A stretch of DNA of 64,000 bases, from NCBI RefSeq assembly GCF_044647545.1, contig NZ_CP172818.1; one strand, 5' to 3'. Shown here one piece after another: positions 7,777 to 9,423 of this stretch. Numbering within the stretch: the first letter of the stretch is position 1; the number at the start of each line of letters is the position of its first letter. The translations under genes were made by a program, and so were the position numbers. The notes beneath the pieces are model-generated. The model saw only the letters and a program-made list of their open reading frames with translations. It was not told the origin of the DNA and did no database searches. Origin of the DNA: Escherichia coli. GTDB taxonomy: Bacteria; Pseudomonadota; Gammaproteobacteria; Enterobacterales; Enterobacteriaceae.

Positions 7777-9423
7777 ATGAATGGCGCACAGTGGGTGGTA
7801 CATGCGTTGCGGGCACAGGGTGTGAATACCGTTTTCGGTTATCCGGGTGGCGCAATTATGCCGGTTTACGATGCATTGTATGACGGCGGCATGGAGCACT
7901 TGCTGTGCCGACATGAACAGGGTGCGGCAATGGCGGCTATCGGTTATGCCCGTGCTACTGGCAAAACTGGCGTATGTATCGCCACGTCTGGTCCGGGCGC
8001 AACCAACCTGATAACCGGGCTTGCGGACGCACTGTTAGATTCCATCCCCGTTGTTGCTATCACCGGTCAAGTGTCCGCACCGTTTATCGGCACTGACGCA
8101 TTTCAGGAGGTGGATATTCTGGGGTTGTCGTTAGCCTGCACCAAGCACAGTTTCCTGGTGCAATCACTGGAAGAGTTACCGCGTATCATGGCCGAAGCGT
8201 TTGACGTCGCCAGCTCTGGTCGTCCTGGTCCGGTTTTGGTCGATATTCCAAAAGATATCCAGTTAGCCAGCGGCGATCTGGAACCGTGGTTCACCACCGT
8301 TGAAAACGAAGTGACTTTCCCCCATGCCGAAGTCGAGCAAGCGCGTCAGATGCTGGCAAAAGCGCAAAAACCGATGCTGTACGTTGGCGGTGGCGTGGGC
8401 ATGGCGCAGGCAGTTTCGGCTTTGCGTGAATTTCTCGCTACCACAAAAATGCCTGCCACCTGCACGCTGAAAGGGCTGGGCGCAGTTGAAGCGGATTATC
8501 CGTACTATCTGGGCATGCTGGGAATGCACGGCACCAAAGCGGCGAACTTCGCGGTTCAGGAGTGCGATCTACTGATAGCCGTGGGCGCACGTTTTGATGA
8601 CCGGGTGACCGGCAAACTGAACACCTTCGCACCACACGCCAGCGTTATCCATATGGATATCGATCCGGCAGAAATGAACAAGCTGCGTCAGGCACATGCG
8701 GCATTACAGGGTGATTTAAATGCTCTGTTACCAGCATTACAGCAGCCGTTAAATATCGATGACTGGCAGCAACACTGCGCACAACTGCGTGATGAACATG
8801 CCTGGCGTTACGACCATCCTGGTGACGCTATCTACGCGCCGTTGTTGTTAAAACAACTGTCGGATCGTAAACCGGCGGATTGCGTCGTGACCACAGATGT
8901 GGGGCAGCACCAGATGTGGGCTGCCCAGCACATCGTCCACACTCGCCCGGAAAACTTCATCACCTCCAGCGGCTTAGGCACCATGGGTTTCGGTTTACCG
9001 GCGGCGGTTGGCGCACAAGTCGCGCGACCGAACGATACTGTCGTCTGTATCTCCGGTGACGGCTCTTTCATGATGAATGTGCAAGAGCTGGGCACCGTAA
9101 AACGCAAGCAGTTACCGTTGAAAATCGTCTTACTCGATAACCAACGGTTAGGGATGGTTCGACAATGGCAGCAACTGTTTTTCCAGGAACGATACAGCGA
9201 AACAACCCTTACCGATAACCCCGATTTCCTCATGTTAGCCAGCGCCTTCGGCATCCCTGGCCAACACATCACCCATAAAGACCAGGTTGAAGCGGCACTC
9301 GACACCATGCTGAACAGTGATGGGCCATACCTGCTTCATGTCTCAATCGACGAACTTGAGAACGTCTGGCCGCTGGTGCCGCCTGGTGCCAGTAATTCTG
9401 AAATGTTGGAGAAATTATCATGA
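7777..9423 (+). CDS. ilvG: acetolactate synthase II, large subunit (intact)
   Basis: Uninterrupted 548-aa ORF with ThDP-binding motifs (GDGSFMMN); no K-12-type frameshift. Confidence 0.9.

Follow-up and report, generated by a model that had tools for sequence, protein, structure and literature searches.

Introduction

Whether the ilvG gene of an Escherichia coli strain still specifies a working acetohydroxyacid synthase (AHAS) II, or is broken as in K-12, is the question raised by the stretch of DNA analysed here, which comprises 64,000 nucleotides (nt) of contig NZ_CP172818.1 from the E. coli assembly GCF_044647545.1 and is hereafter called the window. Valine inhibits the isozymes AHAS I and AHAS III but not AHAS II, and K-12 is valine-sensitive through a frameshift in ilvG that is polar on the downstream genes (PMC8605374). 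Judged from its sequence, the segment 7777..9423 of the window is almost certainly a wild-type and functional allele of ilvG, set in a normal operon of an E. coli belonging to the sequence type 648 (ST648) group of phylogroup F. The sequence directly shows which gene this is, that its frame is open and free of the K-12 lesion, that the intact form is the ancestral one and that the cofactor motifs are conserved. It is an ordinary wild-type ilvG of natural E. coli, with a biology that is already known. An earlier description of the window, made from the letters alone and called below the sequence-only reading, had likewise seen no novel biology in its intact ilvG.

The ilvG Gene of the Window

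The list of open reading frames (ORFs) of the window contains, on the plus strand, a single uninterrupted frame of 548 codons opening with ATG and specifying 548 amino acids (aa), exactly as described in the sequence-only reading. The chance of finding 548 open sense codons in succession can be estimated arithmetically as (61/64)^548, i.e., about 4e-12 per start. The naming of this ORF as ilvG, already proposed in that reading, is borne out by the NCBIfam equivalog NF006524, devoted to the catalytic subunit of acetolactate synthase II (another name for AHAS II), which is matched at 1071.4 bits (cutoff 738), the alignment pairing residues 1-547 of the protein with positions 1-547 of the 548 in the profile. 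The general profile of the biosynthetic AHAS large subunits, TIGR00118, is also passed (717.5 bits vs. 538.35). With respect to its domains, IlvG displays the three-domain architecture of the thiamin diphosphate (ThDP) enzymes, consisting of an N-terminal Pyr domain, a central domain and a C-terminal PP domain, which are recognized by the Pfam families TPP_enzyme_N, TPP_enzyme_M and TPP_enzyme_C, respectively. The nearest solved structure is that of the large subunit of E. coli AHAS I (PDB code 6LPI, E = 2e-161), whose alignment spans residues 2-544 of IlvG and runs unbroken around residue 326.

Residue E47, which we take to be the catalytic glutamate, and the motif G427-D428-G429...N455 (GDG-x25-N), presumably the ThDP/Mg2+ motif, are both retained in IlvG. 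Residues F109, M250, R276, M460 and W464 are kept as well, the functional roles assigned to all these residues being those of the AHAS II literature. Finally, the RefSeq annotation of ECONIH1, a close relative in the ST648 group, gives ilvL, ilvX, ilvG and ilvM coordinates identical to those of the window and calls ilvG intact.

Comparison with the K-12 Allele

In the K-12 genome MG1655, ilvG (b4488) is annotated as a pseudogene of 1645 bp. Pairwise alignment of this gene with the window ilvG discloses a single indel, consisting of 2 nt that are absent from K-12. At this site the window reads AAATATCGATGA and K-12 reads AAATCAATGA, and the K-12 frame, shifted as the sequence-only reading had stated for K-12 laboratory strains, then meets a UGA stop at codon 328. 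The short motif AAATATC found here in the window also occurs in BL21, 24A16CRGN010 and strain 2313, whereas K-12 has AAATC. Besides the gap, 72 substitutions separate the two genes (95.5% identity). They occur on both sides of the lesion and account for 59 synonymous and 11 non-synonymous codon differences, a pattern which is that of an ilvG under purifying selection. The K-12 lesion has also been described as "two separate base pair insertions" (PMC3032704). This description was not adopted, K-12 being 2 nt shorter at one site than four intact E. coli alleles, and it was set aside because ilvG measures 1645 nt in K-12 vs. 1647 nt in both outgroups used here, Salmonella and Citrobacter.

At a larger scale, the window is colinear with positions 3,942,785-4,006,645 of K-12, with 94-97% identity per aligned block and several structural differences. 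Identity to K-12 amounts to ~97% overall and ranges from 93.4 to 100% for individual genes. The idea that ilvG might be a divergence outlier, or a horizontal import, was rejected, as its identity to K-12 fits that of similarly diverged neighbours, e.g., ilvD (96.1%), ilvA (94.0%), ilvY (93.4%) and rep (95.6%); the diversity of ilvG is nevertheless high.

A frame that remains open across the K-12 lesion site would also be expected from a K-12 derivative whose frameshift had been repaired by a compensating indel, i.e., from a valine-resistant ilvG+ revertant. Such revertants exist among K-12 strains, in which the loss of one base, at nt 982 or 983, restores both the frame and the resistance to valine (PMC8605374), and the products of ilvL, ilvX and ilvM in the window are identical to those of K-12. 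However, no compensating second indel occurs in the pairwise alignment with K-12 ilvG: this alignment, suggested in the sequence-only reading as a way of detecting a K-12 frameshift accompanied by a compensating indel, contains the 2-nt gap only, and the 2 nt in question are found in every intact allele examined and belong to the reading frame of the outgroups. In addition, IlvG with its 548 aa is as long as the family profile, whereas revertants by 1-nt deletion, which are 3 nt below the wild-type length, would by simple arithmetic give 547 aa. The substitutions in ilvG, the level of identity to K-12 over the 64 kb, the missing yifN region and the ST648-group genomes that match the window at 99.9-100% all speak against a K-12 origin. 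On the grounds of one gap and 72 mismatches in the alignment, together with the window-wide identity of ~97%, the K-12 revertant was ruled out, and the probability left to it is practically nil.

Among the structural differences from K-12, the intergenic region between ppiC and rep (16945..16981) comprises ~36 bp in the window vs. 832 bp, including the yifN pseudogene, in K-12. The hemX gene (44331..45542) shows a 30-nt difference in length and specifies 404 aa vs. 394 aa in K-12, a length that equals that of the 1212-nt hemX of ECONIH1. The part of the window most diverged from K-12 is the ilvA-ilvY block, with 93-94% identity. Running towards each other, ilvA and ilvY share 4 nt (14091..14094) in the ST648-group lineage, where ilvY measures 891 nt; the K-12 genes lie ~50 nt apart, with an ilvY of 894 nt.

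Ancestral State and Frequency of Intact ilvG

Both in Salmonella enterica and in Citrobacter, ilvG consists of 1647 nt, overlaps by 4 nt a 264-nt ilvM, and stays in frame where K-12 carries its lesion. The ATGA junction between ilvG and ilvM is also identical in these two genera. The occurrence of an intact, in-frame gene in both outgroups indicates that the intact form is ancestral. Similarly, an ilvG of 1647 nt is annotated as intact in all nine of the other E. coli strains fetched, i.e., BL21-Gold, 24A16CRGN010, 2313, N96, NC101, A23, O157:H7 F6321, SCU-123 and 23CRST031.

The frequency of the lesion was estimated with a 76-nt probe laid across the K-12 junction. The exact junction was found in 340 of 5,426 complete E. 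coli genomes, which leaves an intact ilvG in about 94% of them. Among the matches listed, the five with the exact junction are ER1709, K-12 CETR3G40, XL10-Gold, MC1061 and TP10-3, which are laboratory derivatives of K-12, and the remaining ones span 78 nt and thus carry the two extra bases. As the intact gene is both ancestral and in the majority, its presence rules out K-12 yet points to no lineage in particular. The sequence-only reading, which had regarded intact ilvG as a lineage marker, was right in separating the strain from K-12; as a marker of a lineage the gene fails, the K-12 junction being limited to the 340 genomes mentioned above.

Affiliation with the ST648 Group

The ilvG sequence is 100% identical over its 1647 nt in at least 30 complete genomes, e.g., those of strains 'ST648', IMT16316, ECONIH1 and MS6198; at an identity of at least 99%, the number of genomes rises to 134. 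On a larger scale, identity to ECONIH1, FDAARGOS_497, Ecol_881 and others is 99.9% over the opening 25 kb and 100.0% over the segment 43200-56600. It is the remainder of the window that carries the information on lineage, with ~97% identity to K-12 as against 99.9-100% to genomes of the ST648 group. IMT16316 belongs to ST648 (PMC6003029), which is placed in phylogroup F (PMC12736214) and is described in the literature as an extraintestinal pathogenic lineage. The sequence of the window is thus affiliated with the ST648 group, the assignment being made by nearest neighbours; the loci of multilocus sequence typing (adk, fumC, gyrB, icd, mdh, purA and recA) and the Clermont loci lie outside the window. 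The practical value of this result is small, and lies in confirming that the source is a natural E. coli of the ST648 type rather than a K-12 laboratory strain.

A few differences from ECONIH1 were recorded along the window. Small indels at 16612 and 16949-16967 explain a 23-nt difference in length over the first 25 kb. Between corA and yigF (59739..59782), ECONIH1 possesses an insertion of ~1.6 kb made of a DUF943 family gene, a YPO3983 family gene and a partial duplicate of corA; the window is devoid of this insertion and so resembles K-12 at this place. The adjacent yigF (59782..60162) is flagged as not intact in the window, and yigF of ECONIH1 is a pseudogene with an internal stop.

Operon Context

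The operon is organized in the order ilvL-attenuator-ilvX-ilvG-ilvM-ilvE-ilvD-ilvA, and the same arrangement occurs in Salmonella and Citrobacter (Table 1). The leader and the attenuator are intact. At the nucleotide level, ilvL is 100% identical to ilvL of K-12, and the fold of the RNA segment 7636-7700, which covers the terminator, reaches -23.3 kcal/mol with a z-score of -3.99, none of 200 shuffled sequences folding as well. A simple terminator scan of the plus strand did not report the ilv attenuator, although folding shows the hairpin clearly; the attenuator was probably missed because its stem contains an internal mismatch.

Downstream of ilvG, the IlvM protein differs from that of K-12 by no amino acid. 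The sequence-only reading had called ilvG translationally coupled to ilvM, and the two genes indeed share the 4-nt overlap ATGA, in a junction which reads ...TTATCATGATGCAA. From this overlap, translation of ilvM would be coupled to that of ilvG.

Table 1. Features of the ilvGMEDA operon in the window and domains of the IlvG protein.
Feature	Position	Strand	Basis or remark
ilvGMEDA 5' leader/attenuator region	7468..7757	+	Rfam RF02744, 155.8 bits vs. gathering score 88, model positions 1-300 of 300
ilvL, 32-aa Ile/Val/Leu-rich leader peptide MTALLRVISLVVISVVVIIIPPCGAALGRGKA	7539..7637	+	NCBIfam NF007744, 81.9 bits vs. cutoff 59
Attenuator terminator, GC-rich hairpin followed by eight U	~7658..7693	+	RNA fold
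ilvX, small ORF of 16 codons, ending 2 nt before ilvG	7724..7774	+	100% identical to K-12 ilvX; same coordinates in ECONIH1
ilvG, catalytic subunit of AHAS II (acetolactate synthase II)	7777..9423	+	548-codon ORF, ATG start
2 nt lacking in K-12 (AT within AAATATC), codons 326-327	8753..8754	+	Placement ambiguous by ~1 base in AT/TA context
ATGA overlap of ilvM start and ilvG stop	9420..9423	+	ilvG TGA 9421-9423, ilvM ATG 9420-9422
ilvM, 87-aa small (ACT-domain) subunit of AHAS II	9420..9683	+	NF008362, 133.9 bits vs. cutoff 68; Pfam ACT_5, 8.8e-27
ilvE, intact	9703..10632	+	Per-gene comparison with K-12; same coordinates in ECONIH1
ilvD, intact	10697..12547	+	Per-gene comparison with K-12; same coordinates in ECONIH1
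ilvA, intact	12550..14094	+	Per-gene comparison with K-12; same coordinates in ECONIH1
IlvG domain PF02776	residues 1-116		Far above cutoff
IlvG domain PF00205	residues 186-321		Far above cutoff
IlvG domain PF02775	residues 374-522		Far above cutoff

Predicted Function and Valine Resistance

According to the mechanism proposed for this operon, the ilvL attenuator would sense isoleucine, leucine and valine and thereby control transcription of ilvGMEDA. Ribosomes ending ilvG would stop at the TGA within ATGA and probably re-initiate at the ATG of ilvM, and in this way production of the small subunit would be tied to that of its large partner. The IlvG-IlvM enzyme would condense pyruvate with either pyruvate or 2-ketobutyrate, using ThDP, Mg2+ and flavin adenine dinucleotide (FAD). 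Devoid of feedback inhibition by valine, it would allow isoleucine synthesis to go on when valine shuts AHAS I and III. With its open frame, ilvG would impose neither a premature stop nor a polarity of the K-12 type on ilvEDA.

Published phenotypes of other strains agree with such a scheme. Frame-restored derivatives of K-12 grow in 1 mg/ml valine (PMC8605374). The ilvG gene is intact in E. coli B, W and Crooks, and E. coli B grows on valine dipeptides and has a higher expression of ilvGMEDA (PMC3446290, PMC3032704). In the uropathogenic E. coli (UPEC) strain CFT073, AHAS II is the sole active isozyme in human urine, and repair of the ilvG frameshift of K-12 rescues growth in urine (bioRxiv 10.1101/2025.10.31.685768). 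By analogy with these strains, and considering the intact IlvG and an IlvM identical to that of K-12, the source strain of the window is predicted, as in the sequence-only reading, to be valine-resistant. Expression of ilvG, its coupling with ilvM and AHAS II activity are inferred in the same way, and the expected picture would be that of a valine-tolerant strain with a normal, unpolarised expression of ilvGMEDA. An intact ilvG fits an extraintestinal pathogenic lineage, AHAS II being needed by UPEC in urine, and is in that sense expected and already known.

Points against a Functional ilvG

Some observations weigh against the reading of 7777..9423 as a functional wild-type ilvG. When 12 E. 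coli alleles are set beside the two outgroups (Salmonella and Citrobacter), residues M39 and A308 occur in the window allele only, the 11 other E. coli alleles and both outgroups having V at the two positions. Upstream of ilvL, where the promoter is expected, ten substitutions with respect to K-12 are found at 7334-7487. Moreover, the function attributed to this exact allele is deduced from its sequence. Finally, the window contains local defects of quality elsewhere, and the frame calls of the assembly are not automatically reliable.

An intact ORF might thus be accompanied by an AHAS II that is poorly made or inactive, as a result of V39M, V308A or the changes in the promoter region, in which case the strain would not be valine-resistant. 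The two residues peculiar to the window allele could point to an inactive enzyme, and the ten upstream substitutions to a low expression. However, both replacements are conservative exchanges of aliphatic residues, and the catalytic and cofactor-binding residues of IlvG are intact. The gene also bears the mark of purifying selection, both in the 59 vs. 11 codon differences from K-12 and in the mean proportions of non-synonymous (pN, 0.0065) and synonymous (pS, 0.152) differences across alleles. The allele is common and fixed in a successful clinical lineage, as reflected by the at least 30 identical genomes and the 134 genomes with at least 99% identity. In addition, ilvG is required for the growth of E. 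coli in urine (bioRxiv 10.1101/2025.10.31.685768), and ST648 is presented in the literature as extraintestinal pathogenic; taken together, these two facts suggest that a loss of ilvG would probably be selected against. A poorly made or inactive AHAS II is accordingly regarded as very unlikely, and the functional reading of ilvG is retained.

The open frame might also be an artefact of assembly, i.e., a consensus error that masks a real indel. Such a suspicion is nourished by two badly degraded patches in the window (42961..43098 and 56715..57654) and by a change from C8 to C7 in a homopolymer of a tRNA-Leu gene, when compared to relatives that are otherwise 100% identical. However, the 1647 nt of ilvG are 100% identical to those of at least 30 complete genomes assembled independently, and the window and ECONIH1 do not differ at a single position across 3135-16611, a segment that includes the ilv region. 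All homopolymer runs of at least 9 nt in the window are confined to the two patches, and the site of the K-12 lesion, TTAAATATCGATG, is no homopolymer. The concern about quality is lifted for ilvG because the gene is exactly identical in many independent genomes. With these identical genomes and the zero differences from ECONIH1, the artefact was ruled out as the source of the open frame, and its likelihood is considered extremely low. The wild-type and functional ilvG remains the reading adopted here.

The defects themselves deserve a separate description. In the patch at 56715..57654, located between uvrD and yigE, the identity to ECONIH1 decays from 99% to ~65% along the plus strand and abruptly returns to 100% at 57657. 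There, 184 of 234 substitutions copy the adjacent base and thereby create runs such as C11, A13 and T20. The relatives possess at this place an intact gene of 903 bp from the S-adenosylmethionine (SAM) hydrolase/SAM-dependent halogenase family, which is unreadable in the window. This patch has most likely arisen as an error of assembly or consensus, consistent with a low-quality read tail, and not as a true pseudogene. In the second patch (42961..43098), located between the glmZ terminator and the hemY stop, ~137 nt of low complexity, with 55 consecutive A, stand in place of 572 bp of the relatives. The replaced 572 bp hold most of a 591-bp gene for a hypothetical protein (WP_001260227.1), whose remainder lies in the neighbouring intact sequence, and the flanks are identical to those of the relatives. 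An assembly gap that was collapsed or badly closed is the probable origin of this patch. With the two corrupted patches, two genes are ruined or missing in the source assembly, and no biological meaning should be attached to their loss. In the tRNA-Leu(CAG) gene (38912..38997), a homopolymer at 38983, in the T-arm/acceptor region, is C7 vs. C8 in ECONIH1, and ARAGORN calls a tRNA of 86 nt vs. the 87 nt annotated in ECONIH1. The shorter run is probably a sequencing error in homopolymer length, matching the other defects of quality.

Synonymous Diversity around ilvM

A region extending from about 9300 to 9900, which covers the 3' end of ilvG, ilvM and the 5' end of ilvE, exhibits a low synonymous diversity throughout the species, centred on ilvM. 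In 5,417 of 5,424 E. coli genomes, an identity of at least 99% is kept over the 260 nt of ilvM at 9424..9683. For a segment of equal length within ilvG (8400..8659), the same level of identity is reached in 147 genomes, whereas 1,485 genomes fall between 95 and 99% and 3,793 between 90 and 95%. Measured per 100 nt on seven diverse alleles, the diversity amounts to 3-9% in the core of ilvG, 0-0.5% at 9400..9800 and 2-5.6% in ilvE, these alleles having been picked across the ranking of an ilvG segment, which inflates the diversity of ilvG and perhaps partly affects that of the neighbouring ilvE. The corresponding pS values, calculated according to Nei-Gojobori, are 0.152 for ilvG, 0.016 for ilvM and 0.134 for ilvE, with graded shoulders on both sides (0.053 for nt 1321-1584, the final complete 264-nt block of ilvG, and 0.069 for the opening 264 nt of ilvE).

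Between genera, the synonymous divergence (dS) is 0.44-0.72 for ilvM, compared with 1.06-1.29 for ilvG and 0.87-1.04 for ilvE; the non-synonymous divergence (dN) of ilvM is similar to that of ilvG, and the IlvM proteins of E. coli and Salmonella are 91-93% identical. The dS of ilvM being about half that of its neighbours, the moderate long-term constraint acting between genera explains only part of the roughly 9-fold drop seen within the species. The ratio of synonymous-polymorphic to fixed-synonymous codons is 2:16 in ilvM vs. 130:133 in ilvG and 72:86 in ilvE (Fisher p = 0.001-0.005), and the comparison of ilvM with ilvG and ilvE combined (202:219) gives p ~0.003.

A recent gene-specific sweep, or an unrecognised element acting at the nucleotide level in ilvM, is conceivable as the origin of this valley, but is considered rather unlikely. 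The candidate element may be, for example, an RNA structure or a promoter architecture that sets the expression of ilvE or the IlvG:IlvM stoichiometry. Alternatively, the valley may result from chance, or from a mosaic of ordinary recombination or recombinational homogenisation. A search of the literature on the synonymous conservation of ilvM retrieved no relevant paper. The valley leaves the conclusion on ilvG unchanged.

Comparison with Known ilvG Alleles

The closest known counterpart of the window gene is the ilvG of the ST648 group, as represented by ECONIH1 (protein WP_022646321.1), from which it shows no difference within the gene. Elsewhere, the window departs from ECONIH1 by its two degraded patches, by the small intergenic indels and by the lack of the insertion near corA. 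BL21 possesses an ilvG similar to that of the window, with 548 codons, an ATGA overlap with ilvM and AAATATC at the site of the K-12 lesion. The accession of its IlvM, WP_000983255.1, recurs in the annotation of ECONIH1, a genome identical to the window throughout the ilv region. The BL21 allele differs from that of the window by 10 of 548 amino acids and 67 nucleotides. The ilvG genes of W, Crooks and CFT073 are likened to that of the window from the literature, and not from their sequences.

The K-12 pseudogene b4488 occupies the same locus in the same operon, with identical ilvL, ilvX and IlvM protein; among the alleles examined, C146, S342 and H494 are encountered in K-12 IlvG only, the other alleles having A, T or C at position 342. 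At the other end of the scale, ilvG of Salmonella and Citrobacter is preceded, as in the window, by ilvL and ilvX (ilvX being called in L017 and L019), and shares with the window gene ~82-83% nucleotide identity, with a dS of ~1.06-1.29 and a dN of ~0.05. Residue D328 of the window IlvG is common to the IlvG proteins of Salmonella and Citrobacter.

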